Positions 34,973-62,746 of a DNA stretch of 64,000 bases are shown piece after piece. The notes below the pieces were generated by a model. It was not told the DNA's origin. It did not search any database and saw nothing but the letters and a program-made list of their open reading frames with translations. Both the position numbers and the translations under genes were made by a program. Every line of letters begins with the position of its first letter. Within the stretch, counting starts at the first letter, position 1. This DNA comes from an uncultured Chloroflexia bacterium (GTDB taxonomy: Bacteria > Chloroflexota > Limnocylindria > Limnocylindrales > CSP1-4): the NCBI GenBank assembly GCA_963814115.1, contig CAWFBS010000016.1, forward strand, positions 256,431-320,430. The letters are read 5' to 3'.

Positions 34973-37060
34973 TCAACCGGCGGCAGCGCCCGAGGCACCC
35001 CCGAGCTGGCTCTGGGTGGCGTCGATCGCGGCGAGGTAGCTCCATCGTGTCGCGTCCGCCCGCTCCGTGGCCGCCGGCGATTCGCCGAGGCGTCGAGCGT
35101 AGCCTAGCAGCGCCTCGCGGAGGGCGTCCTCGTCCGCACCGGTGGCCATGCCCAGCAGCCGCCGGACGCATTGCTGGACGTCCACGGGAGCGGGCGGCGC
35201 GATCGCCCGGAGGACCTTGGCACTTGCAGTCGGTTCCACCTGCTCTTCGGCGTAGAAGAGCTGCTCGTGGAGCTTCTCTCCTGGTCGCAGGCCGACCGTT
35301 TCCATCGGCTGGCTCTCGGGGTCGCGCCCGGCGAGCCGAACCAGGTCGCGGGCGAGATCAAGGACCCGCACGGGGTCGCCCATGTCGAGCACGAACAGGT
35401 CGCCGGCGCCGTCCCGGCCGAGCGCGGCCGCGTCAAGGATGAGCCACGCGGCCTCGGGGATGGTCATGAAGAAGCGGGTCATCTCTGGGTGCGTGATCGT
35501 GAGCGGCTCGCCGTTCTCCAGCTGCTCCTGGAAGATCGGCACGACACTCCCGGTGGAGCCAAGGACGTTTCCGAAGCGGACCGACACGTACGGACGGCCG
35601 GTGCGCCGGGCGGCGTCCGCCACCAGCATCTCGGCGATGCGCTTGCTGGCTCCCATGACGCTTGACGGACGGACGGCCTTGTCGGTGGACACGAACACGA
35701 ACCGGCCAACGCCCGCAGCCGCGGCTGCGTCGAGCATCACTAGTGTGCCGCCGATGTTCACGTGTGTCGCGTCGGACGGGTGTGTCTCCATCATCGGCAC
35801 GTGCTTGTAGGCCGCCGCGTGGAAGATCACGCCGGGGGCTTCGGACGCGACCAGCCGCTCCATCGTGGCCCGGCTGGCCACGTTCGCCAGGTGAACGCGC
35901 AGCTCGCCGCCCCCCTTTCCATGGTTCCTCCGGGTCTCGAGGTCCCGCTCCACCAGGTACAGCGGACTCTCCGCCCGGTCCACGAGGATCAGGCGGCGCG
36001 GCCTGAGCGCGAACACCTGGCGGGCGAGCTCCGACCCGATGGAGCCGCCGCCACCGGTGATGAGCACCGTCTGCTCCCGGATGATCTCCTCGACACCAGC
36101 CGCGTGCTGGGTGACCATGGGCCGGCGGAGGAGGTCTTCGACACGCACCTTACGGACGCGGTTCGCATCCACGGTTCCGTCCAGCAGATCGGTCATCGAG
36201 GGGACGGTCCGCACCTCGAGCCCCAGGGCCAGCGCGGCATCGACGGCACGTCGGACAGCGCTGCCCGCGGCGCTCGGCATCGTGATGAGCAAGGTCTTGG
36301 CTCCCGTCTTGGCTACAGCCCGGTTCATCGACTCGACGCCGCCGAAGACGGGGATTCCATCGACCACGCCACCGATCAGCGAGGGATCGTCGTCGAGGAA
36401 CCCGACCGGCACCACACCGGAGCGGGGATCCCGTCGGGCCGAGCGAGCAAGGAGAACGCCGGTTTGTCCTGCACCGTAGAGGAGCGTCGCACGCTGGTCG
36501 GTCGCGGCGACGTGGCTCGGATCCGCCCGCCGCTCGGATGCCGCCCGGATGCCGAAGCGAACTCCGCCAAGGATCGCGACGCTCAGGAGCAACTCTGCCA
36601 GCCAGAACGACCGTGGGAACCCGTCTGCCCACGACGCTCTGCCGACTGAACACGCCCCGTAGAAGATGACCAGGGTGATGAGCGATCCGAGCGCAACGGC
36701 CGCGACGATCCGCTCGAGGTCGGGCACGCTTGCGAACCGCCAGCGGCGGCTGTACAAGCCGAGCCTGATGTTGGTGATCGTGCGGACCGCGAGGAGCAGG
36801 CCGACCACCACGGGGAACGCCGGAACCAAGACCGGCCCCGTGATCCGGTCGAAGCGAAGCGCGAGCGCGACATAGGCAGCGATGACAATTCCGACCAGGT
36901 CGATCGCCAGGAGGTACCGGCCGCGGATCTCGGTCGTGAGCCGGCGGATCGAGGGATATGGGGGCGCGAGGGACGCGTCCTCGATCAACGCGGTCCGCGC
37001 CGGCGCGGAAGGGTGGAAGGCGGGAACGAATCTGGGCCGGGACAGGCGGCGGACGGCCAA
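34973..37060 (-). CDS. Membrane-bound nucleotide-sugar 4,6-dehydratase (CapD/WbpM/PglF family)
   Basis: N-terminal transmembrane helices, then a Rossmann fold (LITGGGGSIGSELARQ), then a catalytic region (HAAAYKHVPMME...FVFVSTDKAV). The exact start is uncertain. Confidence 0.8.
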   Translation of the reverse strand: MAVRRLSRPRFVPAFHPSAPARTALIEDASLAPPYPSIRRLTTEIRGRYLLAIDLVGIVIAAYVALALRFDRITGPVLVPAFPVVVGLLLAVRTITNIRLGLYSRRWRFASVPDLERIVAAVALGSLITLVIFYGACSVGRASWADGFPRSFWLAELLLSVAILGGVRFGIRAASERRADPSHVAATDQRATLLYGAGQTGVLLARSARRDPRSGVVPVGFLDDDPSLIGGVVDGIPVFGGVESMNRAVAKTGAKTLLITMPSAAGSAVRRAVDAALALGLEVRTVPSMTDLLDGTVDANRVRKVRVEDLLRRPMVTQHAAGVEEIIREQTVLITGGGGSIGSELARQVFALRPRRLILVDRAESPLYLVERDLETRRNHGKGGGELRVHLANVASRATMERLVASEAPGVIFHAAAYKHVPMMETHPSDATHVNIGGTLVMLDAAAAAGVGRFVFVSTDKAVRPSSVMGASKRIAEMLVADAARRTGRPYVSVRFGNVLGSTGSVVPIFQEQLENGEPLTITHPEMTRFFMTIPEAAWLILDAAALGRDGAGDLFVLDMGDPVRVLDLARDLVRLAGRDPESQPMETVGLRPGEKLHEQLFYAEEQVEPTASAKVLRAIAPPAPVDVQQCVRRLLGMATGADEDALREALLGYARRLGESPAATERADATRWSYLAAIDATQSQLGGASGAAAG

Positions 37061-37900
37061 TAGACTCCCTCACTCGGACATCAAAGTCGCCGACGTAGGT
37101 GCCTTCACGACCACGTCAACCCCGCCGATTCAGCGAGGGCACGCGGAAGGCGCGAAATCCGCGGCATCGGCCGGTTCCGAGCCGGACCTTGAACGGTAAG
37201 ACAACCGGCGCAGCGTGCCTAGTACCAATGGGTCCCCACTCCGTGCCCTCACGGTCATCGATGTTGCGCAGACGCACCAGTATCTGGCATCCCGGTCGCC
37301 CGGCCTGCGGCTTCGCGCCTCGTCCTCTCCGTGGACGGTGGACGGAAGCGGCTGGCGTCTGTCGAGGCGGGCGCGCCACCGGAGCTATGATCGGCCGGAT
37401 GGCCCGTGTCGAACTCGACGTCCCGGATGCACCCGGCTGCCCGATGCTCGGCCTGGCAGCCGACCGACGCACCCGATACACATTCCCGCACGCGGACCAC
37501 CGGTGCCACGTCAGGGATGTTCCAGGTGCGGTTGAGCCAGGTCACCAGTCGGCCTACTGCCTGAGCCTCGACTATCCGTCCTGCGATCGGTACGACAGCA
37601 GCCGACGACGGGCGGAGGACAAAGGACCGCCCAAGTTCGGTCGACCTGTGTGAAGGAGCAGCGATTCGGTAGGACAGTCCGGCAACAAGCATGCAGCGGC
37701 GGGTGTTCCCGCCGGGTTGACGGCCACGACCTCCTGGTCGATGATCCTCGCCACCGGCGCCGCCGTCGCACGGAGAGCCCAACGCTGAAGGCGCCATTCA
37801 ATGGCTCTGCGCTTGAGCCGGCGCTCGGGTCCGGCCGAACCTAGCCTGACCGAAGCCGGGACCCGCCCGCCGGAGGCGAACCTACAAGGAGAGACACTGG

Positions 37901-39490: not shown

Positions 39491-40975
39491 GTGGGCGTCG
39501 CGGCGGCAAGCGCGGCAGACCAGCGGCACGCATCACGCGTCGTACGTGACGCGGCAGGTGCTGACCTGCAGAGGGACTCGCGGCTGCTTCTCGCCGGCAT
39601 GGCGATCGCGGGCGGGGTCGTGGTCGGGATGTTCCTCGAATCTGGAACCCTGATGGGGGTCGCGGCGTTCGCGGCCTTCGGCGCCGGCATCGTCAACCCT
39701 GCACTCGGACTCGTCATCCTGGCCTTCATGGGACCGCTCCGACCACCACCTGCGATCCCAGCACCGGGCTTTGACATCATCCTTGTCGGCGCGATCCTGC
39801 TCGGGAGCGTCTACCGGCTGCCGGTCAGTCGGGCTCGAGTGCGGGTCAGCCCGCCGCTGCTCCTCCTCTTCGCGTTCGTCCTATACGCGTTCGTCCAGCA
39901 ACTCCCGGACATGGCTTCGGGGTATGCCGGGGCCCAGGCCCACGACGTGGGGTTCCTGTTCTACCAGCTCCTCACGGGACTTGGGACGGTCGTCGCCGCC
40001 GGGTTCGTAATGCGGGGCCGGTCTCCGTACCCATTCCTCGTCGCCCTCCTGGCGTCTGCCACGCTGGCCGCCCTCCTCGGCATCGTCACCGCCGACGGGG
40101 TCCCCTATGCGCGGCTCGCGAACCTCATGCCGCCCGCGGATGTCGCCAGCCGCGCGACCGGTCCGTTCGGCAACCCGAACTCGTTCGGCCAGCTCCTCGC
40201 GTACGCGATTGCAGCGGCCGCGGCGTGGTTCGCAGCCACTCATACGGTCCGCGTTCGGGTGGGGTTGCTCGCCGCCATCGGGATCATGCTGTTGGCCGTT
40301 TCGCTCTCGTTGTCGCGCGGAGCCGCCGCCACCCTGCTTGCCGGCCTGGTCGCACTTGCATTCGCGCGCGGGAGAGCGATCGGGTTCGCGGCCGTGGCGG
40401 GCGCCCTGGCCCTGGTGGTCGTCGGTTATCCGCTCCTCGTCGATTGGCGGCTCACCACCGAGGCCGGCTCGGCCTCGTCGGCAGCGGCCGCGCAGCTCGC
40501 CGCCAGTGACGCAGGCAGGCTCGGCGCCATCCTCGCCGGCCCGGCGCTCTTCGCGACGTCCCCGATCTTCGGCATCGGTTTCGGCCAGTACAAGTACCTG
40601 AGCGGCCTCGTGACCGACCAGGGCGCCGGCCTTGTCGCCCACAACTGGTACGGGACGGTCCTCGCGGAGCAGGGCATGCTCGGGATCGCTCTGTGGCTGC
40701 TGCTGCTGGTCACGGTGGGGCTCTGGCTTTGGTCACGCCCGGCTCGCCCTCGGCTCGTCGGATTCGCCACGTTCGGGGCGGTGATTGTCGGCTGCCTGTT
40801 TCTCGAGCCCCCAACGTCCTTCCAGACCTCGGCCCTGCCGGCGATGGTCCTGACGGCGGCCCTGGTCGGAAACTGGGCGCCGTCCGCCGGACCCGCATGC
40901 GCAGAGTCGCGGAGGATACGCCCCGGAGCGTCCAGACGACCCACGGAGGCTGCGGGCCTTTCGGCGGGCGGATGA
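39491..40975 (+). CDS. Wzy_C-superfamily membrane protein (O-antigen polymerase/ligase-like, or an O-oligosaccharyltransferase)
   Basis: At least ten transmembrane helices and an LSLSRGAAATLLAGLVALAFARG loop region characteristic of the Wzy_C/WaaL/PglL family. The start is uncertain. Confidence 0.6.
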   Translation: MGVAAASAADQRHASRVVRDAAGADLQRDSRLLLAGMAIAGGVVVGMFLESGTLMGVAAFAAFGAGIVNPALGLVILAFMGPLRPPPAIPAPGFDIILVGAILLGSVYRLPVSRARVRVSPPLLLLFAFVLYAFVQQLPDMASGYAGAQAHDVGFLFYQLLTGLGTVVAAGFVMRGRSPYPFLVALLASATLAALLGIVTADGVPYARLANLMPPADVASRATGPFGNPNSFGQLLAYAIAAAAAWFAATHTVRVRVGLLAAIGIMLLAVSLSLSRGAAATLLAGLVALAFARGRAIGFAAVAGALALVVVGYPLLVDWRLTTEAGSASSAAAAQLAASDAGRLGAILAGPALFATSPIFGIGFGQYKYLSGLVTDQGAGLVAHNWYGTVLAEQGMLGIALWLLLLVTVGLWLWSRPARPRLVGFATFGAVIVGCLFLEPPTSFQTSALPAMVLTAALVGNWAPSAGPACAESRRIRPGASRRPTEAAGLSAGG

Positions 40976-42207
40976 ACAGGGCGTCGCGTGCCCAGGGCGC
41001 CCGGGGAGCCTCGGTCGACGATCGGCTTCGCGTCGCGTTCCTGGCACCGTCCCTTCATCCGGGAGGCGCCGAACGTCAGATGCTGATCCTTGCGGCGGCG
41101 TTGCCGAAGGCCACGTTCGATCTCCGCTTTCTCCTTCTCTCGGAGCCGGGCGATCTTGCCGCCGAAGCAGCAGCCCTTGGCGTGCCGGTCCACGTCCTGG
41201 GCCTCCGGCGCGAGACGTGCCGGACGTTCACCCCTCGCTGCCTCGGGGATGCTGCACGCGCTCTCCGCGCATACCGGGGGCTCACCCGGGACGTCGACAT
41301 CGTCGATGCGTGGTTGGTGCCTGCCTACACATTTGCCGGGTTGGTCCAGCCTCTCGCTCGGGTCCCCGTTCTCCTGGCCGGCCGCCGATCGACCGTCGAT
41401 GTCAACCGCACGCGGACGTGGTACCGGGAGGCAGCAGGGCGTCTCGCCATGCGTGGCATCGACGCGATCGTCGCCAATTCACAGGCCGCCGCGAACAACG
41501 CAATTGCCGTCGAGCGGATCGATCCGGCGCGCATCCACGTGATTCGGAACGCGGCGGTCCCGATCGAGACGACAGACGCCGAGCGGCTTCGACTGCGGCA
41601 CGCGTGGGGCTTCTTACCGCAGGACGTCGTGGTGGGATGCGTCGGCAACTTCAAGCCGGGCAAGGGCCACCTCGCGCTCGTCGAGGTGGCAGGTCGCCTC
41701 CGAGATCAGTGCCCGAGCCTCCGCTGGTGCTTCGTCGGCGATGGCCCGCTGCGACCAGAGCTCGAGGACGACATTCGCCGCCTTGGCCTCGACACGATCG
41801 TCCGGCTCCATTCCGGGGAACCGGATGCTCGCCGGGTCTACGGTGCCTTCGACATCGACGTCCAGGCGTCCGACAGCGAGGGACTTCCGAATGCCGTCCT
41901 CGAGGCGGCTTCGGCAGGCCTTCCGATCGTCGCCACGGCCGTTGGCGGGACCGCGGAGGTCTTGACCGATGGTGCGGATGGGCTCCTTGTGCCGAAGGGC
42001 GACCGACCCGCGCTTCTGGCGGCGATCGGGCGTCTGGCGGAGGACCGCGAGCTGCGCCATCGCCTCGGCAGGGCGGCCCAGGCGAGGGCAATGGACTTCT
42101 CGCCCGCGCGCCTGGCCGAGCAGACCGGAGAGCTCTACCTGCGACTCGCCCGCGGGGTCTCAGGCGCGGTCGCCGCCCTGGAGCCTCCACTCGGCAGGCA
42201 GTCTTGA
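40972..42207 (+). CDS. GT1 (GT4-like) glycosyltransferase
   Basis: ASDSEGLPNAVLEAASAGLPIVAT is the E-x7-E-containing C-terminal domain. The start overlaps the upstream stop as ATGA. Confidence 0.75.
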   Translation: MNRASRAQGARGASVDDRLRVAFLAPSLHPGGAERQMLILAAALPKATFDLRFLLLSEPGDLAAEAAALGVPVHVLGLRRETCRTFTPRCLGDAARALRAYRGLTRDVDIVDAWLVPAYTFAGLVQPLARVPVLLAGRRSTVDVNRTRTWYREAAGRLAMRGIDAIVANSQAAANNAIAVERIDPARIHVIRNAAVPIETTDAERLRLRHAWGFLPQDVVVGCVGNFKPGKGHLALVEVAGRLRDQCPSLRWCFVGDGPLRPELEDDIRRLGLDTIVRLHSGEPDARRVYGAFDIDVQASDSEGLPNAVLEAASAGLPIVATAVGGTAEVLTDGADGLLVPKGDRPALLAAIGRLAEDRELRHRLGRAAQARAMDFSPARLAEQTGELYLRLARGVSGAVAALEPPLGRQS

Positions 42208-43070
42208 TTGAGCAGCAACGCCGGTAAGCCCCGCGCCGGCGTCGAGAACCGTGATGCTGCCCGGCTTGGCCACCATGCCCAGCTCGACACCCGCCTGGGC
42301 CAGTCCAGGCTCGGTGGCGAACAGGAAGAGCTGTCGTCCAGCCCGGACGGCTCGCGCCAGGAGAGCCGCCACCGCAGGCGACGGATTCTGGCCCTCGATC
42401 CACAGGACCCGATCGGAGGCGGCGGCGCGCTCCACCAGACAGTGACAGCCGGCCGCGACCAGTACCTCGACCGGCAGCGGCCGGTCCAGGTACTGTGAGA
42501 TCCACACATCGAGCTTCGGATACACGACGTAGGCGCCCGTGCCTTCAGCTTGCCAGCGCCTGTGGGCGCGGCGCAGCTCATCGACCGTCAACGTGCTTGG
42601 CTCGACCGCGCTGGCCGTGGTGGGGGGGAGGTTTCCGCGTTCGACGCCACGTACCAGGTCGGGACTTCCAGGCACCCGGCCGCGACCAGGCGCCGTCGAC
42701 TGGCATTCTCTCGGGTCACGAAGGCCGTCAGCACGGTCCCGCCGCGGTCGGCGACGAGCCGCCTGGACTCTTCGATCACCAGGGAGAACGCACCGTGCCC
42801 GCGGGCCTCGGGGAGCGTCCACGAACCGGTCATGATCCCGACGAGGAGCACCTCGTCCCGGTAGCGCACCGTCCGATATGAGACCGCCGAACCCGCCACG
42901 ATCCTGCCCTGATCCCGCAGGACCATGAGGTCGGCGACGCGGGCACCCACCTGGCGCTCGAAGTCCCACGAGTACATCGAGCGGTCTCCCCAGCGGCCGA
43001 AGCTGCGGTTCAGGCCGGCGAGGTAGTCATCCTCCAGCCCGCGCGGGTTCACCTCGATGTCCAGAACCAT
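42160..43070 (-). CDS. GNAT-fold acyltransferase (FemAB/CelD-like, Acetyltransf_6), with an apparent frameshift near 42640
   Basis: The N-terminal 160 aa in one frame (..IVAGSAVSYRTVRYRDEVLLVGIMTGSWTLPEARGHGAFS..) continue in another frame (..STLTVDELRRAHRRWQAEG..). Confidence 0.45.
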
Positions 43071-44029
43071 CAGGGGCTGCCATTCGGTGCAAGAGGGTCC
43101 CCGAGCGCGGCGCGGGTGCGCTCGGACAACTCGGCCATCGTCGCGAACCAGAGGTGGTCGCCGTAGCGATCCTCGAGCGCGGACAGGACGACATCGAGGT
43201 AGTTCCGGTACAGAGCATCGATGCCGTCGAGCATGACGTGGCCGAACGCCACCTTGATGATGTGGGCCTTGATGCTCACCAGTCCCCCGGCCGCAACCAA
43301 CTCCTCAGCCCGGTCCAGCGGGTTCGTCGCTGAGAAGTTGGACGGAACATGAACAAGACGACCGCCGTACACCAACATGGGGTGGAGCAGCGAGACGCCT
43401 CGCAAGCCCGACATGGCAGTCGTGGCATCGCGGGTCACCGGCGTGATGAGGTCGCGGGCGGACGCCACGTACTCCAACCCCACGGTTGCCATCGCCGCGG
43501 CGAGGTCTTCATTCACGTCCCAGCCCGGGGGCGACATGCCGCGCGGCCTGGGGAGACCGGCCGCCTCGAAAATCTCGAGTCCGCGGGTGAGCATCTCGGT
43601 GCACTCGGCCAGGCCCCGTCCACGGAACTCGACCGGGATCCGCAATCCACGATTGACGTGGTGAAGGCCGTGCAGTCCGATCTCGGTCCGCGGAAGCTCG
43701 CCCAGGTAGGCGACGAAGTCCGGATGACGATCGAGACGCATCGTTCCAGGTGGGAGCGTGGGAGCGAGCATGACCCGGTCGCGCAACCACGGGACGCGGG
43801 CGAGCAGCCTGCGCGTAGGAAAGGCCGATAGCTCGCGCCAGTCCGGCGCAGTGAAAAGGGTGACGCGGAGCCGGGGGTGACGATCGAGCAGCCACGCGAC
43901 GTGGCCGAGCGCCCCTCCGCCAAGATCGCCGCCCGCCTCGTAGGCATCTGACGAGCGGCCCGGGTGGATGTCGTCGATGCTGAACGTGACCGCCGCCTCA
44001 TAGGAGTCGGGGAGCCAGGGCGCTCTCAT
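43070..44029 (-). CDS. Polysaccharide deacetylase-like (NodB / CE4-like) protein
   Basis: TFSIDDIHPG (a TFDDG-like motif) and HGLHH (an HxxHH-like motif). Confidence 0.45.
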   Translation of the reverse strand: MRAPWLPDSYEAAVTFSIDDIHPGRSSDAYEAGGDLGGGALGHVAWLLDRHPRLRVTLFTAPDWRELSAFPTRRLLARVPWLRDRVMLAPTLPPGTMRLDRHPDFVAYLGELPRTEIGLHGLHHVNRGLRIPVEFRGRGLAECTEMLTRGLEIFEAAGLPRPRGMSPPGWDVNEDLAAAMATVGLEYVASARDLITPVTRDATTAMSGLRGVSLLHPMLVYGGRLVHVPSNFSATNPLDRAEELVAAGGLVSIKAHIIKVAFGHVMLDGIDALYRNYLDVVLSALEDRYGDHLWFATMAELSERTRAALGDPLAPNGSP

Positions 44030-44147: not shown

Positions 44148-45338
44148 TTATCGGTCTCGCTCAGCCAGAAGGTCGCGGTAGAGGATCTCGTGTTGGGCGA
44201 TGAGGGTCGAGAGCTCGTAGTGCTCGACCATCCGCTTCCGCCCGCGCTCGGCCATCGCCCGAGCCTCTCTCGGATCATCCAGGATCCGGTCCATCGCCCG
44301 GGCAAGCGCGGGGACATCACCGACCGGGACGATGATCCCGGCGTCCGGCGCGACGAGGTCCGGACTCCCCCGAGCGTCCGTCACGACCACCGGAACCTCC
44401 AAGCTCAGGGCTTCCATGACGCACCGAGGTAGGCCTTCCGTCCTGCTGGCGAGCACCAGCGCCGTCGACCCGGCGATGGTCGGGCGTACATCCTGAAGGA
44501 CCCCAAGCAGGTGTACGCGGTCCCCAACGCCTGCATCGCGGATGGCTGCCTCGACGCGCGGGCGCTCCGGGCCGTCGCCCACCACGACGAGATGGCACTG
44601 GCGGTGCTCCATCCGCCCAAAGGCGGCCACGATGTCGAACGGCCGCTTTCGAAGTGTCAGCTCGCCCACGACCACGAACAGCGGGGTTTCCGGGTCGATC
44701 CCCAACCGAGTCCGGGTCGAGTCGATCTCGTCCGCCGGCACGTTGGAGCGGGAATACCACCGCGTGTCCACTCCAATTCCTGGCATCTGCCGGAGGCGAG
44801 GCCGGGGAACAATCCGATGCTTCAGCGCTGCGGCATGATCCTCATCGTTGATGACGATGAGCCGGTCGGTCCACCGGCCCGCGATTCGCTCCACGCCCAC
44901 AAACAGCGCGTTCCGGGCGCGCCCCCCCCTCTCATAGAACGGCAACCCATGCGCCGTGTAGACGGCAGCGGGCCGCGAGCGTGCGGGAAGTCGCCGGATT
45001 GCCGCCCGCGTCACGAACGCGGCGATCGGTGTGTGCACGTGGACGATGTCGAAGCCGGACTCGAGGATCCGGGACAGGCTGTTGAGTGTGCGCAGGATCC
45101 CGGGTGCATCGAGGATCGAACGCGACAGGGGCAGCTCATGCAGCTCGTCGAAGATCCCATCGAGCCCCGGATCGACCGTCGCTCCGTTTGCGGCCGCTTC
45201 GACGTGCCAACCCATGTGGCGAAAGTGGGACGCATATGGGACCAGGAAGCCCCGGATGGTGGCGGAGACCGTCGCCACCATGAGAAGGGAAGGCCCGGTC
45301 CTGGCGCTGGCACCAGGATCGAGTTCGTGACCGGTCAT
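44148..45338 (-). CDS. GT1 (GT4-like) glycosyltransferase
   Basis: LVLASRTEGLPRCVMEALSLEVPVVVTDARG. The start at MTGHELD is tentative. Confidence 0.75.
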   Translation of the reverse strand: MTGHELDPGASARTGPSLLMVATVSATIRGFLVPYASHFRHMGWHVEAAANGATVDPGLDGIFDELHELPLSRSILDAPGILRTLNSLSRILESGFDIVHVHTPIAAFVTRAAIRRLPARSRPAAVYTAHGLPFYERGGRARNALFVGVERIAGRWTDRLIVINDEDHAAALKHRIVPRPRLRQMPGIGVDTRWYSRSNVPADEIDSTRTRLGIDPETPLFVVVGELTLRKRPFDIVAAFGRMEHRQCHLVVVGDGPERPRVEAAIRDAGVGDRVHLLGVLQDVRPTIAGSTALVLASRTEGLPRCVMEALSLEVPVVVTDARGSPDLVAPDAGIIVPVGDVPALARAMDRILDDPREARAMAERGRKRMVEHYELSTLIAQHEILYRDLLAERDR

Positions 45339-46524: not shown

Positions 46525-46530
46525 CGGTGC

Positions 46531-51066: not shown

Positions 51067-51236
51067 CCTCTTGTCGGCGCGCCTTCGGGCCGCCCTGCCG
51101 GATCTTCGTCGTTACCGCCGCCGGTCGCTCGGGGAGCCCCGGCCACAGTGGCGTCCGCTCCTCACGTTATCTCATCGACGGTCGAATCCGCCCCAAGGCC
51201 GAGCGCCGGGTCGCCGCCCTCCCCGCCGCCCGGCGC

Positions 51237-54160: not shown

Positions 54161-54389
54161 GCTCAGCCACCCTCAACTGATGGGCCGCCTTCTGGTCCCG
54201 AGTACCGCGACCGCACGGCCGCGCAAAACGGACTCGGAGACTGTGGGGCCGGCCCGGGGCCGGCCCATTGCAGTAGCCAACCGCCCGAGTCTACCGGGGA
54301 ATGCGAGGAATGGCGACCCGAGGGTCTGACGCAATCTCCGGCACCACGCGCTCACATCGAGGCCTGCCGCCCTCCCCGCCGCCCGGCGC

Positions 54390-56144: not shown

Positions 56145-56528
56145 GACGCGGCTCCGTTCGGCAACCCGGCTGACTCGGAGAGTCCCGTGGCTTTGCGGCC
56201 CCGCCTCGCGACGGGTGTGCTATTTCGTGGATGCCGGCCGGATGAAGACAGGTCAGCCAGCGCGGCGCAGACACCAGCCAGGGTACGTCAGTGAGCTCCG
56301 ATGGACTACAGGGCGATTCGTACCGTGCTCAATGAGTCGGTCACATCACCAGCGGGCCCACAGGGTCCCCGCAGCACACTCGACCCCCCTCCGAATCCGT
56401 GTTCAAATGCCCGGGCGGGCCTTCGCGCGTGCGCGTGCGCACCACTTCGCGGGGCGATTGACCAGGCCGCCTGTGGGCCTGGGCGTCGTCGACCCGTCCG
56501 CCGCCGACCGGACTCCCAGGGCTCCGCG

Positions 56529-57551
56529 CTACGGTCGCCGGTACAACGGGAAGTACCCGCTCCGGTCAGCCGGATCGAGGGCTGGGTCGACGGCCTCGAC
56601 AAGGCGCCGGTACGCCTGCTCATCGATGACGATCCGGAGCGTGCTGAACGGGTGGTGAAGCGGCGAGAAGCCATCCTTGAAGTGCAGGAGCGAGTCACTG
56701 CCGGCGCCGACGCCCCCCCCGAGGTGCAGGTACCGATCGCCCCGGGCTTTCGCCCAGCCAATCACGAACTGCATCATCAGCTTCGTCGGCTGGGCGTTCA
56801 TTGCCGCGTCGCTCGTCCCCGAGAGATGGTATTGCACGATGCGACAGGTCTCCGCGTACAGGCCCGCCGCGGCAATCTCGCCTTCCCGCTCGACTAGGCA
56901 CAGGTGGAGCCGATCGCGGAGCGCGTCACGCAACCCGTCGAAGTACGCATCGTCGAAGAAGTAGAACTGGTTCGCGGAGCGACGTTCCATCGTCGCCCGG
57001 TACAGTTCCTTGAACGAATTGAGGTGGGTCCACGTCTCGTCCATCCGGGCGACATACCCGAGTCGCACAGCCCGCTTGATGCCACGCCGATGATCGACGC
57101 GCATCTGTTCCCGCAAGACTTCGCCAGGCAGGGAAAGGTCGACGCTGACCGTGTCACCGTGGTACACGACCGTGCCGATCCCGGAAGGGGGCACCGGGTT
57201 GAGCAGTGGGTGAAGGCGTACGAAGGCCGACACCACACCGGCTGCGCGGAGCACCTGGACGCCGGCGGCAAGGGCTTCGCGAAGAAAGGTCGCATCCCCG
57301 GTTCCGCGCACCAGGGGTCCCGGATACCCGTACGGCGACGTCGCGTCGAGGCCGCCGCCGGGAATGCTCCGAGTGATGAGCGGGAGCAGCATCGCGTTGC
57401 CGTTGGCGGCGACCAACAGTCCCCGCGGCTCCCCACGTTCCTGCGCCGCGCACAGGGCGACGTAGGGCGGGAGGTGGTAGAAGTCGTGGTCCGTCTCCTC
57501 CAGGAAGGATGTCCACGCCGGTGCGTTGACATCCAGAAGCTCACCCTTCAT
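56529..57551 (-). CDS. FemAB-family / GNAT-fold aminoacyl- or acyl-transferase (Acetyltransf_6)
   Basis: 340 aa with a two-GNAT-lobe organisation: ...NAMLLPLITRSIPGGGLDATSPYGYPGP... and LHLGGGVGAGSDSLLHFKDGFS. Confidence 0.55.
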   Translation of the reverse strand: MKGELLDVNAPAWTSFLEETDHDFYHLPPYVALCAAQERGEPRGLLVAANGNAMLLPLITRSIPGGGLDATSPYGYPGPLVRGTGDATFLREALAAGVQVLRAAGVVSAFVRLHPLLNPVPPSGIGTVVYHGDTVSVDLSLPGEVLREQMRVDHRRGIKRAVRLGYVARMDETWTHLNSFKELYRATMERRSANQFYFFDDAYFDGLRDALRDRLHLCLVEREGEIAAAGLYAETCRIVQYHLSGTSDAAMNAQPTKLMMQFVIGWAKARGDRYLHLGGGVGAGSDSLLHFKDGFSPLHHPFSTLRIVIDEQAYRRLVEAVDPALDPADRSGYFPLYRRP

Positions 57552-57590
57552 CGCAGGTCGGGCAAAGGGAGTGGGCAGGGCGGCGATTGG

Positions 57591-58538
57591 TCATCGAGTG
57601 CCTCGCCCAGACGATTCACGGATGGCGCGGAAGAAGAGCGATGGCCCGGGAGTCACCGAGGCGAGGCGCGATTGGAGTGGTCGCTCCAATGCCGCGAGGA
57701 TCCCCGGGGGCACGCGGCGGCTTACGACGGGAAGTCGGAAGATCGACGCCGTGCGTGTCGTCTCGACCCGGAAGCCGGCCGAGCGCAGCCACGTTCGGAC
57801 GTCGGCGGGCGCATGGTCGAAATCCGTTCCGGGGCTCCTCCACTGCGGCTTCGATCGAAGCTCGTCGGACCGGGCGGAGGGCCTGCGTCTGCGGATCACA
57901 TCGGGGAGAAGGTAGACGCCGTCGTTGCGCTCCGAACCCCGCGTGAACGGCGACCGTTCGTGCCGTCGCATCAGGTAGGCAGCAATCGCCTTGAGGTTGC
58001 GCTTGTTCGCGGACTCCAGCACGAGCACGCCGTCCGGGCGGAGCACGCGGGCGAGCTCTCGAATTGCGGGCCTCGGGTCCTGGAAATGGTGCAGGACCCG
58101 GATGCACACGGCCGTGTCGAAGGTGGCATCCGGGAACGGGAGCGAGAATGCGTCACCCGATACGAACTGGTACCGGTCATCGCCCTCGAGCCGTTCTCGG
58201 GCCGCCTGGAGCATCGTCTCGGAGGCATCCAGCAGTACGACCTCGCGATAGCCTCGATACTCGCCGGCCAGGCGCCCGAAGCCGGCGCCGACCTCGATCA
58301 CGCGCACGCCTACCGCGGGCATCAACGCGCGGAGCGCAAGGCGGTCACAGGCGTCCTCGTAGACACGGACCGGCCAGAAGGCGTCGCGGTACGAGAGATC
58401 GGCGAATGCGCGCAACGTCTTCTGGAGTCCCGGATCGGCCCTCGTCGCCGGCGCTCCGCGTGGCTCGCCGTTCGGGTCTCGACCCAGCGGATCTGACGCC
58501 GGAGTCGTTACCAGTTCGGCGTTCGGTGGGATGCTCAC
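57591..58538 (-). CDS. Class I SAM-dependent methyltransferase
   Basis: VIEVGAGFGRL (motif I), DASETML, and AFSLPFPDATFDTAVCIRVLHH. Confidence 0.75.
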   Translation of the reverse strand: MSIPPNAELVTTPASDPLGRDPNGEPRGAPATRADPGLQKTLRAFADLSYRDAFWPVRVYEDACDRLALRALMPAVGVRVIEVGAGFGRLAGEYRGYREVVLLDASETMLQAARERLEGDDRYQFVSGDAFSLPFPDATFDTAVCIRVLHHFQDPRPAIRELARVLRPDGVLVLESANKRNLKAIAAYLMRRHERSPFTRGSERNDGVYLLPDVIRRRRPSARSDELRSKPQWRSPGTDFDHAPADVRTWLRSAGFRVETTRTASIFRLPVVSRRVPPGILAALERPLQSRLASVTPGPSLFFRAIRESSGRGTR

Positions 58539-58753
58539 GGTTGGTTCACGTGACGGCGCATGCCGTCATCCTATCGGTCGCCACGGGCTCGTGGGAGGGC
58601 GAGCCCGACGATGGGGCCCCATCGAGCGTGCGTGGTGCTGCAAGGCACCATTGCCTCTGGCTAGCCCGCAAGTACCGGGAGCCGCGTGGTAACGTGCGAG
58701 GCTCGCCCGGGTCCCCAGGGGCACCTGCCCGCCGCGCCAATGTCGGAGACCTC

Positions 58754-59884
58754 ATGACTTCGTTGCCCGAGCCTCATCGATGGATCGTGCCGCTGGCGAG
58801 GCCGGACATCGGCGACCGCGAGATCGACCTCGTAACCCAGGTCCTGCGCAGCGACGTTCTCGCGATGGGCCAGTTCACCAAGCGCTTCGAAGCTGGCATC
58901 GCGTCCTTGGCCGGCCGCCACGAAGGGGTTGCATGCTCAAGCGGGACGGCCGGGCTGCATCTCGGCGTCGACGCCATGGGGATCGGCGAGGGTGACGAGG
59001 TCATCACCACGCCCTTCAGCTTCGTCGCCTCCTCCAATTGCCTCCTGTACGAGCGCGCCGTCCCGCGCTTCGTCGACATCGAGGAGGACAGCCTTGGGAT
59101 CGACCCCGATCTAGTCGACAACGCCGCAACGAAGCGGACGCGGGCGGTCCTGCCGGTCCACGTGTTTGGCCGTCCGTGCCGGATCGAGGCGATCGAGGCG
59201 CTCGCTCGGCGGCGCGGTTGGTCGATCATCGAGGACGCCTGTGAGGGGCTCGGCTCGTCGGTCGGCGGACGGCCGCTGGGCAGCTTCGGCGACGTCGCCG
59301 TCTTCGCTTTCTACCCGAACAAGCAGATCACGACGGGCGAGGGCGGGATGGTCGTCACCGACGATCCCGCAGTCGCCGAGACGATGCGCAGCCTCCGCAA
59401 CCAGGGACGGGATGCGGACGGCACCTGGCTTCGTCACGTTCGCCTAGGTTACAATTACCGGCTCGACGAGATGTCGGCTGCCGTCGGCGTGGCACAGCTC
59501 GAGCGGATCGACGAGCTGCGCGCCGGGCGGGCCCGCGTGGTGGCCGTCTACGAGTCGGTGCTCGCCGACCAGGACTGGCTTCGCCTCCCCCGCGCTGGGG
59601 CCGGGGAGACGGTCGACTGGTTCGTCTACGTGGTGCGACTCCATCCCGAGATCGACCGTGACCGGGTGATCGGCCGACTGGCCGCGCTCGGAGTTCCCTC
59701 GCGTCCGTACTTCTCGCCGATCCACCTCCAGCCCTTCTATCGCTCGATGTTCGGGTTCAAGCTGGGTGACTTCCCGGTGACCGAGAGGATCGCCGCGTCC
59801 ACGCTTGCGCTTCCGTTCTCGAGCCGGCTGACGGACGCGGATGTTGGGTTCGTGGCCGACAGCCTGCGGGAGGCGGTCGAATGA
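58754..59884 (+). CDS. DegT/DnrJ/EryC1/StrS-family PLP-dependent sugar aminotransferase (PglE-like)
   Basis: GTAGLHLG, FSFVASSN, and the Lys region FAFYPNKQITTGEGGMVVTDD. Confidence 0.85.
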   Translation: MTSLPEPHRWIVPLARPDIGDREIDLVTQVLRSDVLAMGQFTKRFEAGIASLAGRHEGVACSSGTAGLHLGVDAMGIGEGDEVITTPFSFVASSNCLLYERAVPRFVDIEEDSLGIDPDLVDNAATKRTRAVLPVHVFGRPCRIEAIEALARRRGWSIIEDACEGLGSSVGGRPLGSFGDVAVFAFYPNKQITTGEGGMVVTDDPAVAETMRSLRNQGRDADGTWLRHVRLGYNYRLDEMSAAVGVAQLERIDELRAGRARVVAVYESVLADQDWLRLPRAGAGETVDWFVYVVRLHPEIDRDRVIGRLAALGVPSRPYFSPIHLQPFYRSMFGFKLGDFPVTERIAASTLALPFSSRLTDADVGFVADSLREAVE

Positions 59885-61071
59885 CAGCGGCCGCGCGCCC
59901 GCCCGCGGTCGTCGTTTCAGGTCACACGATGGCGCTCGCCGTGGTGCGAGCCCTCGGCGAGGCGGGCGTGCCGGTCGCGGTCCTCCACTACGACGCGCGT
60001 GATATGGCCCAGGCCTCGAGATACGTGGTCGCCAACGTCCGGATCCCCCATCCGCTGCGCGACGAGGAAGGGTTCATCCAGGCGCTGTTGGATCAGGGTG
60101 AGCAGCTCGGGGGAGGAATCCTGATACCGGCGTCCGACGAGAGCACGGTCGCCGTCTCGCGCCACAAGGGGCGCCTGCAGGCGCGCTACATCGTCGCCTG
60201 TCCTGAGTGGGAGATCACCGAGCGGTTCATCGACAAGGCGAAGACCCACGCGCTGGCTCGAGCGAACGAGGTCCCGACTCCGCGGACGGTGGTTCCGTCC
60301 GGCCCGGAGGATCTCGCGGACCAGGCGGCCCAGATCGGCTTCCCCCTCCTGCTCAAGCCGGCGGAGAGCCACCTGTTCTTCGAGCATTTCAAGCGGAAGA
60401 TGTTCCGCGTAGAGACGCTTGCGGAGCTCAGGAGCTGCTTCCTGAGCTCACGCGACGCCGGGCTGACGGTCGTCCTGCAGGAGATCATTCCCGGCCCGGA
60501 CTCGTCGGTCGTCAACTACAACGCCTACACGTCGGACGGCCAGGCCCTGGTCGAGTTCACGGCTCGCCAGCTCAGGAAGGCACCGCCCGCCATGGGCTCG
60601 CCCCGCGTGGCGATCAGCGAGTGGATCCCCGAAGTGGTCGAACCTGGCCGGAGGATCCTGGCGGCCATGGGCTTCTACGGCTTCGCGTGCACGGAATTCA
60701 AGCTGGACGAGCGTGACGGCCGCTACAAGCTCCTCGAGGTCAACGGGCGCCACAATCTCTCGGGGATGCTTGCAGTCCGATGCGGAGTCAACTTCCCGCT
60801 GATCCAGTACCTGCACCTCTCGGAGGGTGTGACACCATTAGGGGGAACATATCGGAGTGGAATGTACTGGATCGACGTGTTCCGGGACGTTGGATACAGC
60901 CTCGCCTACCTGCGCCGCGAGCAATTCAGCGCATCGGATTACGTGGCCCCGTACGCCCGGCGGCACTGCGACGCCATCCTTGATCGCGGCGACATGGGCC
61001 CCTTCTGGACCCGCTTGCGGTACCTCGTCCGGAACGCCCGATCGACGGCACGAGTCACGTCAGCCGGCTGA
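59881..61071 (+). CDS. ATP-grasp-domain protein (carboxylate-amine ligase-like)
   Basis: The overall organisation is a pre-ATP-grasp Rossmann fold plus an ATP-grasp (IGFPLLLKPAESHLFFEHFKRKMFRV...EFKLDERDGRYKLLEVNGR). The start overlaps the DegT stop. Confidence 0.6.
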   Translation: MTAAARPPAVVVSGHTMALAVVRALGEAGVPVAVLHYDARDMAQASRYVVANVRIPHPLRDEEGFIQALLDQGEQLGGGILIPASDESTVAVSRHKGRLQARYIVACPEWEITERFIDKAKTHALARANEVPTPRTVVPSGPEDLADQAAQIGFPLLLKPAESHLFFEHFKRKMFRVETLAELRSCFLSSRDAGLTVVLQEIIPGPDSSVVNYNAYTSDGQALVEFTARQLRKAPPAMGSPRVAISEWIPEVVEPGRRILAAMGFYGFACTEFKLDERDGRYKLLEVNGRHNLSGMLAVRCGVNFPLIQYLHLSEGVTPLGGTYRSGMYWIDVFRDVGYSLAYLRREQFSASDYVAPYARRHCDAILDRGDMGPFWTRLRYLVRNARSTARVTSAG

Positions 61072-61154
61072 ACACGGGGAACCCAGCAGTCTGGTCCATT
61101 CGAGAGCACGTCGCGGCCTGTTGTGCCGTCTTAGGGAGACGAGGAGCTATATCG

Positions 61155-62042
61155 ATGGAGTCGCGCCGGATCGCATGCAACGCGTGCGGAGCCGACAACT
61201 TCGCGCCGATCTCGACGGTCGACAGCTGGACGATCGGACGTTGCCGGGCATGCGGCCTGGTGTTCGTGAACCCCGCGCCGTTCTTCGGCGCGACCGACGA
61301 GTTCTCGGAGATGTCGCGTGCGTTCGAGTACACGGAGTACATGCACCAGCCCATCAGCCCTGAGATCCTCGCCTTCGAACGTCAGCAACTCCTCGCCAAT
61401 GCCGGTGAGGTGGCCCGCCTGAACGGGAGCAGCGCGGGCCCCGGGCGACCGATGCGGTTTCTCGACATCGGTTGCGGGTCGGGAGCCTCGGTCGGGGCTG
61501 CGTCGGGCCTGGGCTGGGACGCGATCGGGATCGACATCGATCCCCAGCTGATCGCGGAAGGGAGAGCCCAGCTGAAGGTGGACCTGCGGTGCGTGCCCAT
61601 CCTCGAGTGTGGCCTCCCGCCCGGCGAGTTCGACTTCATCAAGCTCCGCGACGTCATCGAGCATGTGCCCAATCCACTCGAGGTCCTCGTCAAAGTCCGG
61701 GAGCTCCTGGCGCCTGGCGGCAACGTCCTCCTCGTCACGCCCAACGAACGCAGCCTGGCAACCCAGGCACGCGTCGTCCTCCGACGCAGGCGCACGCTCG
61801 TCGCAACCGTGCCACCGCCCCACCATCTCCACTCGTTCGGAACGGAGACGCTCGTGCGGACGCTGCACCGTGCGGGTCTCCGCCCGGACACGACGTTCAC
61901 GACGACGCCAACGGACGCCCGCTACGTGACGTCGAGCAATATGGCTCGGGCGAGCCGTCTGACTCTCGTTCGGCCCCTTTGGGCCGCCGGCCGGGCACTG
62001 GGGATGGGGGCCGTGCTGGTGAGCTGGGCGCGGGCGCAGTAA
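61155..62042 (+). CDS. SAM-dependent methyltransferase with an N-terminal CxxC...CxxC zinc ribbon
   Basis: CNACGADN...CRACGLVFVNP, then LDIGCGSGAS, then a methyltransferase fold. Confidence 0.7.
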   Translation: MESRRIACNACGADNFAPISTVDSWTIGRCRACGLVFVNPAPFFGATDEFSEMSRAFEYTEYMHQPISPEILAFERQQLLANAGEVARLNGSSAGPGRPMRFLDIGCGSGASVGAASGLGWDAIGIDIDPQLIAEGRAQLKVDLRCVPILECGLPPGEFDFIKLRDVIEHVPNPLEVLVKVRELLAPGGNVLLVTPNERSLATQARVVLRRRRTLVATVPPPHHLHSFGTETLVRTLHRAGLRPDTTFTTTPTDARYVTSSNMARASRLTLVRPLWAAGRALGMGAVLVSWARAQ

Positions 62043-62056
62043 CGGGATCGCCCGAC

Positions 62057-62746
62057 ATGGGCAGCCACGCGAGTCGAAGACGGACCCGGCTCGGTATCAA
62101 GCGGCTCATCGACGTCGCGGGCGCGGCGACGGTCGCTGTCGTCCTGTTGCCCGTGGTGGTCTGGGTGGCGCTGGGCGTGGCCCTCACCGAGGGGTTCCCG
62201 ATCCTCTTCCGCCAGGAGCGGCCCGGTCTCCGCGGCAAGTCGTTCACGATCTTCAAGTTCCGGACAATGCGCTCTCCCCGACCGGACGAAGTGTGGTACC
62301 TCACGGATGACCAACGCGTCACCCGGTTCGGTCGGTTCCTCCGCACGACGAGCCTCGACGAGCTGCCGGAACTTTGGAACGTCCTGCGCGGGGAGATGAG
62401 CCTCGTGGGACCGCGTCCGCTCCTGACCGAGTATTTGGCGACCTACGCGCCTGACGAGCGGCGGCGACACGACATGCGGCCGGGTATCACGGGCTGGACC
62501 GCCGTGAACGGACGCAATGTGCTCCAGTTCCGTGACCGGCTCGAGCTCGACCTCTGGTACGTCGACCATTGGAGCCTCGGGCTGGACATGCAGATCCTGG
62601 GAATGACCGCGATCCAGGTGCTGCGGCGAACCAACGTCTCGGCTACCGAGGACAAAGGCCTGGGGTTTCCGCTGCCCGGGGTCGAGACCGGCGCGGCCGG
62701 CCAGCCCGATACGCTTGGCGATCCGACCGACGGTGCCAAGTCCTAG
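62057..62746 (+). CDS. Small bacterial sugar transferase (initiating phosphoglycosyltransferase, PglC/WbaP C-terminal-like)
   Basis: A single N-terminal membrane helix. IFKFRTM...DELPELWNVLRGEMSLVGPRP is the Bac_transf signature. Confidence 0.8.
   Translation: MGSHASRRRTRLGIKRLIDVAGAATVAVVLLPVVVWVALGVALTEGFPILFRQERPGLRGKSFTIFKFRTMRSPRPDEVWYLTDDQRVTRFGRFLRTTSLDELPELWNVLRGEMSLVGPRPLLTEYLATYAPDERRRHDMRPGITGWTAVNGRNVLQFRDRLELDLWYVDHWSLGLDMQILGMTAIQVLRRTNVSATEDKGLGFPLPGVETGAAGQPDTLGDPTDGAKS

Follow-up and report, generated by a model that had tools for sequence, protein, structure and literature searches.

A probable Wzx/Wzy/Wzc-dependent polysaccharide locus of Chloroflexota with a cyclic-dinucleotide riboswitch ahead of candidate membrane-tethered glycan-processing enzymes

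Does a locus that encodes the enzymes for a bacillosamine-type starter sugar, a Wzy_C-family membrane protein and several surface proteins glycosylate those proteins or build a polysaccharide? This question is raised by a gene cluster in a 64,000-nucleotide stretch of Chloroflexota DNA (contig CAWFBS010000016.1, positions 256,431 to 320,430), hereafter called the window. The original prediction, made from the letters of the window, had read the cluster as a protein O-glycosylation system, in which the Wzy_C protein would be a PglL-type O-oligosaccharyltransferase (O-OTase) and the Ser/Pro-rich linkers of three beta-helix proteins its acceptors. It had also kept a capsule or extracellular polysaccharide (EPS) route as an alternative, in view of a Wzc-like protein. 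The findings presented here suggest that this alternative is the better-supported reading. Specifically, the locus is probably a Wzx/Wzy/Wzc-dependent cluster for a surface or secreted heteropolysaccharide, equipped with riboswitch-controlled, membrane-tethered glycan-processing enzymes. The starter-sugar genes and the gene inventory of the original prediction were retained, and its protein O-glycosylation reading was not.

Genes in the window, which has a G+C content of about 70%, were called from third-position GC and open reading frame (ORF) length, and families were assigned via Pfam and NCBIfam (Table 1). Every family that had been named before was present at or very near the position given for it. 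Together they cover each part of a Wzy-dependent pathway, with the Wzy_C protein as candidate polymerase, either at scores over the curated cutoffs or as strong family matches. The Wzy_C gene begins at the base after the wzc stop codon (39490/39491). Hydropathy analysis gave its product about 12 hydrophobic segments. As the sole polytopic membrane protein of the locus apart from the flippase and the anchors of the dehydratase and Wzc, the Wzy_C protein is the only polymerase candidate and, since a Wzc co-polymerase needs a polymerase partner, also the only candidate for that partner. The Wzc-like protein contains Walker A (PGEGKT), A' (LLVDADLRRP) and B (LVIFDGPP) motifs, a GNVR domain and two transmembrane segments and is, judged by its sequence, of the genuine bacterial tyrosine kinase (BY-kinase) type.

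In order to place the locus among its relatives, genomes were scanned. With the flippase sequence alone as query, no relatives came up. Homology searches gave many homologs of the Wzy_C protein, and an alignment-based scan of species-representative genomes with this family returned 23 loci whose Wzy_C proteins were 33-66% identical to that of the window (individual loci of relatives carry L numbers below). All 23 came from Chloroflexota metagenome-assembled genomes (MAGs) labelled 'Chloroflexia' or Candidatus Limnocylindrales, most of them from one soil MAG series. When all proteins of the window locus were compared with these loci by tblastn, a Wzc homolog was located directly upstream of the Wzy_C gene in 19 out of 23, and the adjacency held also where the Wzy_C protein was only 33-45% identical to that of the window. 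To our knowledge, this conserved adjacency has no counterpart in described pgl loci. The conserved translational coupling of the Wzc and Wzy_C genes, together with a flippase, a phosphoglycosyltransferase (PGT) and three glycosyltransferases, appears to be the signature of a Wzy-dependent polymer and not of en bloc protein glycosylation.

The same comparison showed that the locus is not a chance collection, as its genes co-occur in largely the same order in many Chloroflexota MAGs. The core order in the closer relatives was PglF-like dehydratase, Wzc, Wzy_C, GT4, optional GNAT and DUF2334 genes, GT4, epimerase, flippase, GT4 and GINT1_N. The first GT4 gene was kept downstream of the Wzy_C gene and the flippase gene inside the loci of the relatives, and a VanZ homolog was found beside the PglF-like or the Wzc gene in L001, L004, L005, L008, L015, L016, L018 and L022. 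Identities to the window proteins were 63-76% for the PglF-like dehydratase, 65-76% for the DegT aminotransferase and 58-79% for the epimerase, the latter in nearly all relatives. Homologs of the GNAT (70-78%) and DUF2334 (79%) proteins were confined to L001, L004 and L005. A module of DegT, PGT and FemAB-like genes recurred at variable positions, with FemAB-like homologs of 37-55% identity co-occurring with DegT and PGT in L007, L008, L011 and L018. In one relative, a membrane glycosyltransferase of the GT87 family adjoins the PGT; the window locus has no GT87.

In 12 loci, beta-helix homologs were encoded no more than 10 kb from the Wzy_C gene. The three closest MAGs (L047-L049), retrieved via their beta-helix proteins, matched the second half of the window locus gene for gene: PGT, methyltransferase, ATP-grasp and DegT genes, divergent from acyltransferase genes, which were followed by three full-length tandem beta-helix genes and then by GINT1_N, kept next to the beta-helix array. 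Pfam-annotated FemAB-like counterparts occupied the same position in all three. Methyltransferase 1 had an ortholog in L048, and methyltransferase 2 (L047 and L048) and the PGT (218-221 aa; L047 and L048) had two each. The ATP-grasp ortholog of L047 was 66% identical and identically placed, and L048 carried an equivalent gene of 396 aa.

We then considered whether the Wzy_C protein resembles PglL. The Wzy_C profile (PF04932) was confirmed and matched 38 out of 38 family members, and the PglL-specific profile PF15864 (PglL_A) matched none of the 38, even at E <= 10. PF15864 was derived to tell PglL from WaaL and was built from Gram-negative PglLs (PMC3643930), so its negative result is weak evidence. 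A sequence-profile search of the PDB with the Wzy_C family gave no match even at E <= 10, and a fold search matched WaaL/SEDS structures. The Wzy_C superfamily takes in O-OTases (PMC3643930), and the Wzy_C domain is frequent in Wzy polymerases (PMC12502699). The assignment as a PglL-type O-OTase did not find support, given the position of this protein as sole polymerase candidate, the adjacency to Wzc and the missing PglL_A motif.

The sugar-starting genes had led to the original prediction, and at family level they were all there: the dehydratase (PF02719), the aminotransferase (PF01041) and the PGT (PF02397) expected for a 2,4-diamino-2,4,6-trideoxyhexose. From these families it is a reasonable inference that a 4-amino-4,6-dideoxy-N-acetylhexosamine, similar to bacillosamine or to 2-acetamido-4-amino-2,4,6-trideoxygalactose (AAT), is the initiating sugar on undecaprenyl phosphate. 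The synthesis of ordinary Wzy-dependent capsules and O-antigens begins with this trio of dehydratase, aminotransferase and small PGT, too. The dehydratase showed 4-5 hydrophobic segments at its N-terminus by hydropathy. In NCBIfam, the DegT protein scored 295 bits as PseC-like and 272 bits as LegC-like, both under the equivalog cutoffs. The PGT reached 251 bits with TIGR03025, also under the cutoff, and has a single strong hydrophobic segment (residues 25-43).

No locus protein gave a match to a hexapeptide-repeat family, as expected for a PglD/PglB-type acetyltransferase; the acyl-transfer candidates of the locus were only the GNAT, FemAB-like and ATP-grasp proteins. The N-terminal domain of the GINT1_N protein was considered as a sugar N-formyltransferase replacing PglD. 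Its family profile matched the formyltransferase domain of ArnA (E 5e-5), and this reading was dropped because the catalytic residues N102 and H104 of ArnA align to Ser and Arg. Numerous acidic residues are invariant in the C-terminal part of the GINT1_N protein, which also gave a very weak GH43-like match.

The three beta-helix genes are tandem copies with 96-98% nucleotide identity over about 1.1 kb and different N-termini. The original prediction was right about their number and arrangement; the (SPSPSATP)n linkers that it gave to all three were found in copies 1 and 3 only. Copy 1 is the only intact one with a fibronectin type III (FN3) module and an SPSPSATP linker. Copy 2, which is 97% identical to the domain of copy 1, has no Ser/Pro linker. 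Copy 3 has the linker and 97.7% nucleotide identity to copy 1, and four single-base insertions relative to copy 1 break its frame; three of the inserted bases are G, and all four are outside long homopolymer runs. As a result, its tblastn matches are spread over three frames and its translation is out of frame after about residue 130. Copy 3 may be a pseudogene of recent origin, or its repeated sequence may have led to a consensus error. Split genes were also seen in relatives, namely MurJ in L001 and the first beta-helix gene in L047 and L049, which is suggestive of indel errors there.

More than 100 homologs were found for the conserved C-terminal 348 residues. The typical architecture consists of an N-terminal anchor or signal, a Pro-rich spacer and the beta-helix, and some homologs carry FN3, collagen or TSP3-like modules. 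The spacer varies in composition (SP, PT, PA or PPV repeats) and is missing from several homologs. This absence and variability are the behaviour of a generic spacer, and the proposal that the linkers are glycan acceptors was not supported by them. The structural model (predicted local distance difference test score, pLDDT, 97) is a right-handed parallel beta-helix of the pectin-lyase fold. Its best structural matches were an alginate epimerase/lyase (8ja4), the Vibrio polysaccharide (VPS) lyase RbmB (9ozd), AlgE4, phi29 gp12, polygalacturonases of glycoside hydrolase family 28 (GH28), GH110 enzymes and many phage capsule depolymerases. By sequence alone, the family profile also matched the GH28 endopolygalacturonase 1k5c (E 4.7e-6), with E167 opposite the enzyme position D173, a catalytic Asp. 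Conservation reached 85-100% at residues E113, D160, E167, D194, E196, D198, D237, R276, D278 and K283, also when homologs with only about 30% identity were included. The conserved carboxylates lie on successive coils, and the family has a conserved IDLEPD motif of its own. Pfam found nothing in the beta-helix domains of the window, some homologs carry precomputed PF13229 matches, and a sequence-profile search of the PDB with the full-length protein returned only FN3 and low-complexity noise. Glycanases of this fold are encoded inside EPS loci, as described for WceF (PMC7949094) and RbmB (PMC11637428, PMC12993940). Based on fold and conservation, we propose the beta-helix proteins as candidate polysaccharide-processing enzymes (lyase, hydrolase or epimerase), and they may constitute a distinct family.

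An Rfam scan of the window placed a c-di-GMP-I (GEMM-I) riboswitch aptamer for cyclic di-GMP (c-di-GMP) in the leader of beta-helix gene 1, with a score far above the gathering score of 35 and a match over model positions 1-87 of 87. A GGAG Shine-Dalgarno sequence lies immediately 3' of the aptamer, and the ATG of the gene is 13 nt downstream. A weak RAGATH-31 match from the scan (58518-58582) scored 26 bits with E 0.42, well short of its gathering score of 71.8, and was dismissed as chance. A riboswitch preceded the first beta-helix gene in L047 (8904-8978), L048 (7819-7892) and L049 (8695-8770), as well as more distant beta-helix homologs in L007 (5940-6014), L015 (20424-20499) and L026 (1358-1438). 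The association therefore comprises seven loci, the window and six relatives. In L006 (5482-5578), the gene behind the riboswitch encodes a membrane protein of 164 aa with a W-x-G-T-x-W N-terminal motif and no beta-helix. A short cytoplasmic N-terminal motif of this kind is common to the riboswitch-controlled proteins; in the window it reads MFWNGTRW (56121-56144, minus strand), with YWTGTHW and FWDGTRW as variants elsewhere, and presumably it resembles the 'YWDGxxW' of DUF2510. A literature search found no paper linking Chloroflexota, Wzy loci and c-di-GMP riboswitches in the searchable library.

In the alignment, read by eye, the P3 stem varied in sequence and length between loci and its arms remained complementary. 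We took as the equivalent of Vc2 G20 the unpaired nucleotide that immediately precedes the first paired GC on its 5' side in the RF01051 alignment, the mapping to Vc2 being our own. This position was A in five of the seven loci (window, L015, L047, L048 and L049), C in L007 and G in L026; it was also G in the L006 riboswitch. A47 and C92 were retained. A G20-to-A change is the hallmark of GEMM-Ib riboswitches that sense cyclic GMP-AMP (cGAMP), and such variants can bind both ligands (PMC6140456). The riboswitch fits the GEMM-Ib signature, and its ligand could be c-di-GMP, 3',3'-cGAMP or both. The ligand sensed by the A20 form may be 3',3'-cGAMP instead of c-di-GMP, in which case cGAMP riboswitch signalling would extend to matrix control in Chloroflexota. 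A membrane-associated GGDEF-EAL protein (6542-8512, plus strand), whose gene lies 26 kb upstream of the locus and whose GGDEF motif is canonical, is a possible source or sink of the ligand. A Hypr-type, cGAMP-making residue was sought in this protein following the PleD D344 rule for GGDEF specificity; the residue is the canonical acidic one and not Ser/Thr, so that synthesis of cGAMP by this protein finds no support, although the genome may encode further cyclases. In the minimum free energy (MFE) fold, the Shine-Dalgarno sequence is base-paired within the aptamer-closing helix, which tentatively, and with low confidence, points to an OFF switch.

Taken together, the following pathway can be proposed. 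The PglF-like dehydratase and the DegT aminotransferase would convert UDP-N-acetylhexosamine (UDP-HexNAc) to UDP-4-amino-4,6-dideoxy-HexNAc. The 4-amino group would probably be acylated by an enzyme other than PglD, namely the ATP-grasp ligase (translationally coupled to DegT), the FemAB-like transferase or the GNAT protein; the N-acyl group might be non-acetyl or unusual, and the two methyltransferases may decorate the sugar further. The small PGT would load this starter onto undecaprenyl phosphate, the three GT4 enzymes would finish a repeat unit of about four sugars and the MurJ-family protein would flip it across the membrane. There, the Wzy_C protein would polymerise the units, with chain length controlled by the adjacent Wzc-like co-polymerase/BY-kinase. 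The three beta-helix proteins, tethered outside the membrane via the N-terminal anchor and the Pro-rich spacer, would cut or modify the polymer as lyases, hydrolases or C5-epimerases, in analogy to RbmB (VPS), WceF (stewartan) and AlgE/AlgG (alginate). The GEMM-I riboswitch would control translation of beta-helix gene 1, or of the whole run of three genes if they are co-transcribed. If it is an OFF switch, high levels of the cyclic dinucleotide, the matrix-building state, would repress the matrix-processing enzymes.

This type of pathway is already well known, and comparison with described systems shows what is particular to the locus. The stewartan, amylovoran and colanic-acid systems are diderm and include Wza, Wzb and a large WbaP/WcaJ-type PGT. 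Their loci share with the one described here the Wzy pathway, a Wzc BY-kinase, several glycosyltransferases, a flippase and a tailspike-like beta-helix glycanase encoded in the cluster (WceF, PMC7949094; AmsF; WcaM), here a candidate one. The present locus departs from them in encoding neither Wza nor Wzb, in its small PGT, in a starter that is probably a diamino-trideoxyhexose and in the riboswitch before the beta-helix genes. The vps/rbm biofilm-matrix clusters of Vibrio cholerae include the polysaccharide lyase RbmB, and the locus described here has three tandem membrane-tethered paralogs in a Chloroflexota genome; sequence identity to RbmB is only 16%, and its proposed catalytic Lys, K227, could not be mapped onto the beta-helix proteins. 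In Vibrio, c-di-GMP works through transcription factors and not through a riboswitch on the lyase mRNA. The AlgE1-7 epimerases of Azotobacter vinelandii are secreted and have a YG(F/I)DPH(D/E) motif, whereas the proteins described here are membrane-tethered, have the conserved IDLEPD motif and are not accompanied by alginate genes. With the Neisseria and Acinetobacter PglL systems and Campylobacter Pgl, the locus shares the module of PglF-, PglE- and PglC-like enzymes, a flippase and a Wzy_C-superfamily protein. It differs from them in having no PglD-type acetyltransferase and no PglL_A motif, in the Wzc gene that adjoins the Wzy_C gene and in beta-helix proteins that are enzyme-like, unlike pilin-like or lipoprotein-like acceptors. 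The riboswitch shares with GEMM-I and GEMM-Ib members (Vc2; Geobacter Gs1761) the full-length RF01051 match and the location in a 5' leader beside the ribosome-binding site. With known GEMM-Ib it also shares A at G20 together with A47 and C92 (PMC6140456), and it differs in its host phylum, Chloroflexota, and in its place before a beta-helix gene inside an EPS locus.

Several observations weigh against the polysaccharide reading. Within the Wzy_C superfamily, neither sequence nor fold tells a Wzy polymerase from an O-OTase or another ligase, and the matches of the fold search included neither a PglL structure nor a Wzy_C-type Wzy structure. Only one Tyr is present in the C-terminal tail of the window Wzc (39370-39490), where most orthologs have a cluster of 2-5, like genuine BY-kinases; L010 has none, and L019, L020 and L024 have one each. 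In this genome, control through autophosphorylation may be weakened or absent. Family searches over 34.4-62.7 kb detected no cognate phosphatase (Wzb/CpsB), exporter or LCP ligase; an outer-membrane polysaccharide export (OPX) protein is not expected in a monoderm cell. As for the beta-helix proteins, the non-enzymatic adhesin PfbA was among the top structural matches. The family lacks both the GH28 motifs (NTD, DD, GHG, RIK) and the AlgE motif YG(F/I)DPH(D/E), and for this reason we do not file it under GH28 or AlgE. The assignment as lyase or epimerase is further weakened because both need uronic acids and the window locus has no UDP-sugar dehydrogenase. Genes for UDP-glucose/GDP-mannose dehydrogenases are found inside the loci of relatives (L001:8555-9637; L049:40-1434 and 15032-16366; L047:1396-2781), implying uronic acids in those organisms. 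Regarding the riboswitch, the MFE value comes from a single fold and is no better than that of shuffled controls (z = -0.6). In addition, the source bacterium is uncultured.

These points have to be set against what the alternatives would require. The locus could serve a cell-wall-anchored anionic polymer like the teichuronic acid of the Bacillus subtilis tua operon, with the beta-helix proteins acting as wall-polymer remodelling enzymes or adhesins. The gene set does parallel tuaA-H, which encode a small PGT, a flippase, GT4 enzymes, a Wzy_C-type polymerase and a chain-length protein; the GT4 enzymes of the window give weak TuaC matches, and the UDP-sugar dehydrogenases of the relatives would suit such a polymer. 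Its structural matches would be PfbA and phi29 gp12, the latter presumably a teichoic acid-degrading protein. However, the locus has neither an LCP-family ligase nor, in the window, a UDP-sugar dehydrogenase, and a riboswitch for a biofilm second messenger suits a matrix polymer that is made facultatively more than one that belongs constitutively to the wall. We regard this explanation as unlikely. Rather improbable, in our judgement, is a bifurcated pathway in which the Wzy polysaccharide is made and units, single or polymerised, are also transferred to proteins, possibly to the beta-helix linkers, by an O-OTase encoded elsewhere. The initiating-sugar module is of a type used by many O-glycosylation systems, the low-complexity linkers would be exposed outside the membrane, and in Acinetobacter K-locus units feed both capsule and PglL, a precedent for precursors shared by two pathways. 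Nevertheless, neither the window nor the 10 kb around the loci of the relatives contains a second Wzy_C or other OTase gene, and no data call for this model. A variant would combine both roles of the beta-helix proteins, which would be riboswitch-controlled and at the same time glycan acceptors, the Wzy_C protein or another OTase adding diamino-sugar-initiated chains of Wzc-determined size to the Ser/Pro linkers. We give it little probability; if true, it would mean a cyclic-dinucleotide-regulated glycoprotein surface layer in Chloroflexota.

The lowest probability goes to protein O-glycosylation alone, whether general or dedicated, with the Wzy_C protein as a PglL/WsaB-type O-OTase that moves an undecaprenyl-linked, bacillosamine-initiated glycan onto the Ser/Pro/Ala linkers, which we consider quite unlikely. 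The starter-sugar trio is present, a WaaL-type role is itself unlikely because Chloroflexota are generally devoid of lipopolysaccharide, and the beta-helix genes belong to what is conserved in the locus. Most beta-helix homologs have Pro/Thr/Ser/Ala-rich low-complexity linkers beside the membrane anchor, which are compatible with acceptors and not diagnostic of them, and O-OTases do belong to the Wzy_C superfamily (PMC3643930). On the other side, an OTase role for Wzy_C would leave the Wzc co-polymerase without a polymerase, and the adjacency of the two genes in 19 of 23 loci does not suit en bloc transfer, which works without a dedicated co-polymerase. PF15864, although a weak test, matched no family member; the linker varies in composition and is missing altogether from copy 2 and from several homologs; and there is no PglD-type acetyltransferase in the locus. 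Moreover, this model turns proteins with enzyme-like carboxylates and a lyase/hydrolase/epimerase fold into passive targets. The Wzx/Wzy/Wzc-dependent heteropolysaccharide is thus the explanation that we favour.

The boundaries of the locus that had been proposed were upheld (Table 1). Left of about 34.4 kb, the genes are unrelated (metabolism, a PIN toxin and a HerA-like ATPase), and the right flank encodes a ParA/BcsQ-like ATPase, which matches the arrangement in L048. The epimerase, the MurJ/Wzx-type flippase, the Wzc-like protein, the ATP-grasp and FemAB-like proteins and the methyltransferases of the original prediction were all found by Pfam or NCBIfam. Its three 'GT1s' are indeed three glycosyltransferases, whose Pfam families, Glycos_transf_1/Glyco_transf_4, correspond to CAZy GT4 and not to GT1. 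The GNAT, DUF2334 and GINT1_N proteins and the riboswitch were absent from its list. Several genes are tightly spaced: the ATG of GT4 a (40972) overlaps the stop codon of the Wzy_C gene, and the GTG of GT4 c (48144) that of the flippase gene. The start of GT4 b is uncertain, with candidate start codons at 45338, 45428 and 45476 and orthologs of 381-398 aa. The flippase scored 195 bits with TIGR01695, under the MurJ equivalog cutoff of 235, and has at least 11 hydrophobic segments. The DUF2334 family is polysaccharide-deacetylase-like. In the 840 bp between the divergent PglF-like and wzc genes (37061-37900), neither a convincing ORF nor an Rfam match (E <= 1) was present, and the stretch may be a regulatory region.

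Table 1. Features of the locus, with position in the window, strand and main supporting match
Feature	Coordinates	Strand	Evidence or remark
VanZ-like membrane protein	34385..34933	-	PF04892 47.7 bits; recurrent neighbour, locus edge
PglF/CapD/WbpM-like membrane-anchored UDP-HexNAc 4,6-dehydratase, 695 aa	34973..37060	-	PF02719 (Polysacc_synt_2) 328 bits and CoA_binding_3
Wzc-like co-polymerase fused to BY-kinase ATPase domain, 529 aa	37901..39490	+	TIGR01007 161.8 bits, cutoff 108
Wzy_C-family polytopic membrane protein, proposed repeat-unit polymerase (Wzy)	39491..40975	+	PF04932 42.4 bits, cutoff 31.7
GT4 glycosyltransferase a	40972..42207	+	Glycos_transf_1, Glyco_trans_1_4, Glyco_transf_4
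GNAT acetyltransferase, accessory	42588..43070	-	weak: PF13527 E 1.9e-4, under curated cutoff
DUF2334 protein, accessory	43070..44029	-	PF10096 38.7 bits
GT4 glycosyltransferase b	44148..45338	-	Glycos_transf_1 106 bits
NAD-dependent sugar epimerase/dehydratase, 313 aa	45583..46524	+	PF01370 191 bits
MurJ/MOP-family flippase, Wzx role	46531..48147	+	PF03023 171 bits; weaker Polysacc_synt and Polysacc_synt_3
GT4 glycosyltransferase c	48144..49307	+	Glycos_transf_1 118 bits
GINT1_N-domain protein, cytoplasmic	49354..51066	-	PF24793 110 bits; no hydrophobic segment
Beta-helix paralog 3: transmembrane anchor, Ser/Pro linker, beta-helix; frame broken	51172..52458	-	identity to copy 1
Beta-helix paralog 2, 506 aa: transmembrane anchor, non-linker N-terminal module, beta-helix	52640..54160	-	
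Beta-helix paralog 1, 584 aa: FWNGTRW motif, transmembrane anchor, FN3, SPSPSATP linker, beta-helix	54390..56144	-	
c-di-GMP-I (GEMM-I) riboswitch aptamer, leader of beta-helix gene 1	56157..56231	-	RF01051 59.6 bits
FemAB-like/Acetyltransf_6 acyl- or aminoacyl-transferase	56529..57551	-	PF02388, PF13480
S-adenosylmethionine (SAM)-dependent methyltransferase 1	57591..58538	-	PF08241 89 bits
DegT/PglE-like pyridoxal phosphate-dependent sugar aminotransferase	58754..59884	+	PF01041 368 bits
ATP-grasp ligase	59881..61071	+	weak ATP-grasp matches; start overlaps DegT stop codon
SAM-dependent methyltransferase 2	61155..62042	+	PF13489 79 bits
Small monotopic phosphoglycosyltransferase, PglC/WbaP-C-terminal type, 229 aa	62057..62746	+	PF02397 211 bits

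Outside the locus, ARAGORN called a 91-nt tRNA-Met at 3610-3700 (plus strand), inside and antisense to an aldehyde ferredoxin oxidoreductase gene (2434-4512, minus strand), which is probably a false positive. Two neighbouring LeuA/homocitrate-synthase-like paralogs with HMGL-like and LeuA_dimer domains (12401-14482 and 15696-17429, plus strand) were found near a thiamine pyrophosphate (TPP) enzyme (9083-11233) and a prephenate dehydratase (17544-19010); these belong to amino-acid biosynthesis and are unrelated to the locus.

New in the locus are the phylum, an unassigned family of candidate beta-helix enzymes kept as a tandem triple array, the apparent direct control of this array by a riboswitch within an EPS locus, and a nucleotide like that of GEMM-Ib. 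Limnocylindria-type Chloroflexota of soil are abundant and uncultured, and their cell surface is almost undescribed; the locus provides a concrete, conserved gene set for a probable surface polysaccharide in this group. The trio of dehydratase, aminotransferase and small PGT, even together with a Wzy_C protein, is insufficient for calling protein glycosylation. What is unusual is that a riboswitch sits in the very mRNA of membrane-tethered beta-helix proteins encoded in tandem, and that the nucleotide at its specificity position is of the cGAMP type in five of seven loci. If these proteins are matrix-remodelling lyases or hydrolases switched by a cyclic dinucleotide at the RNA level, they would constitute a compact and testable link between a second messenger and matrix turnover in a little-studied phylum, and could be a source of new polysaccharide-active enzymes without an assigned Pfam family.

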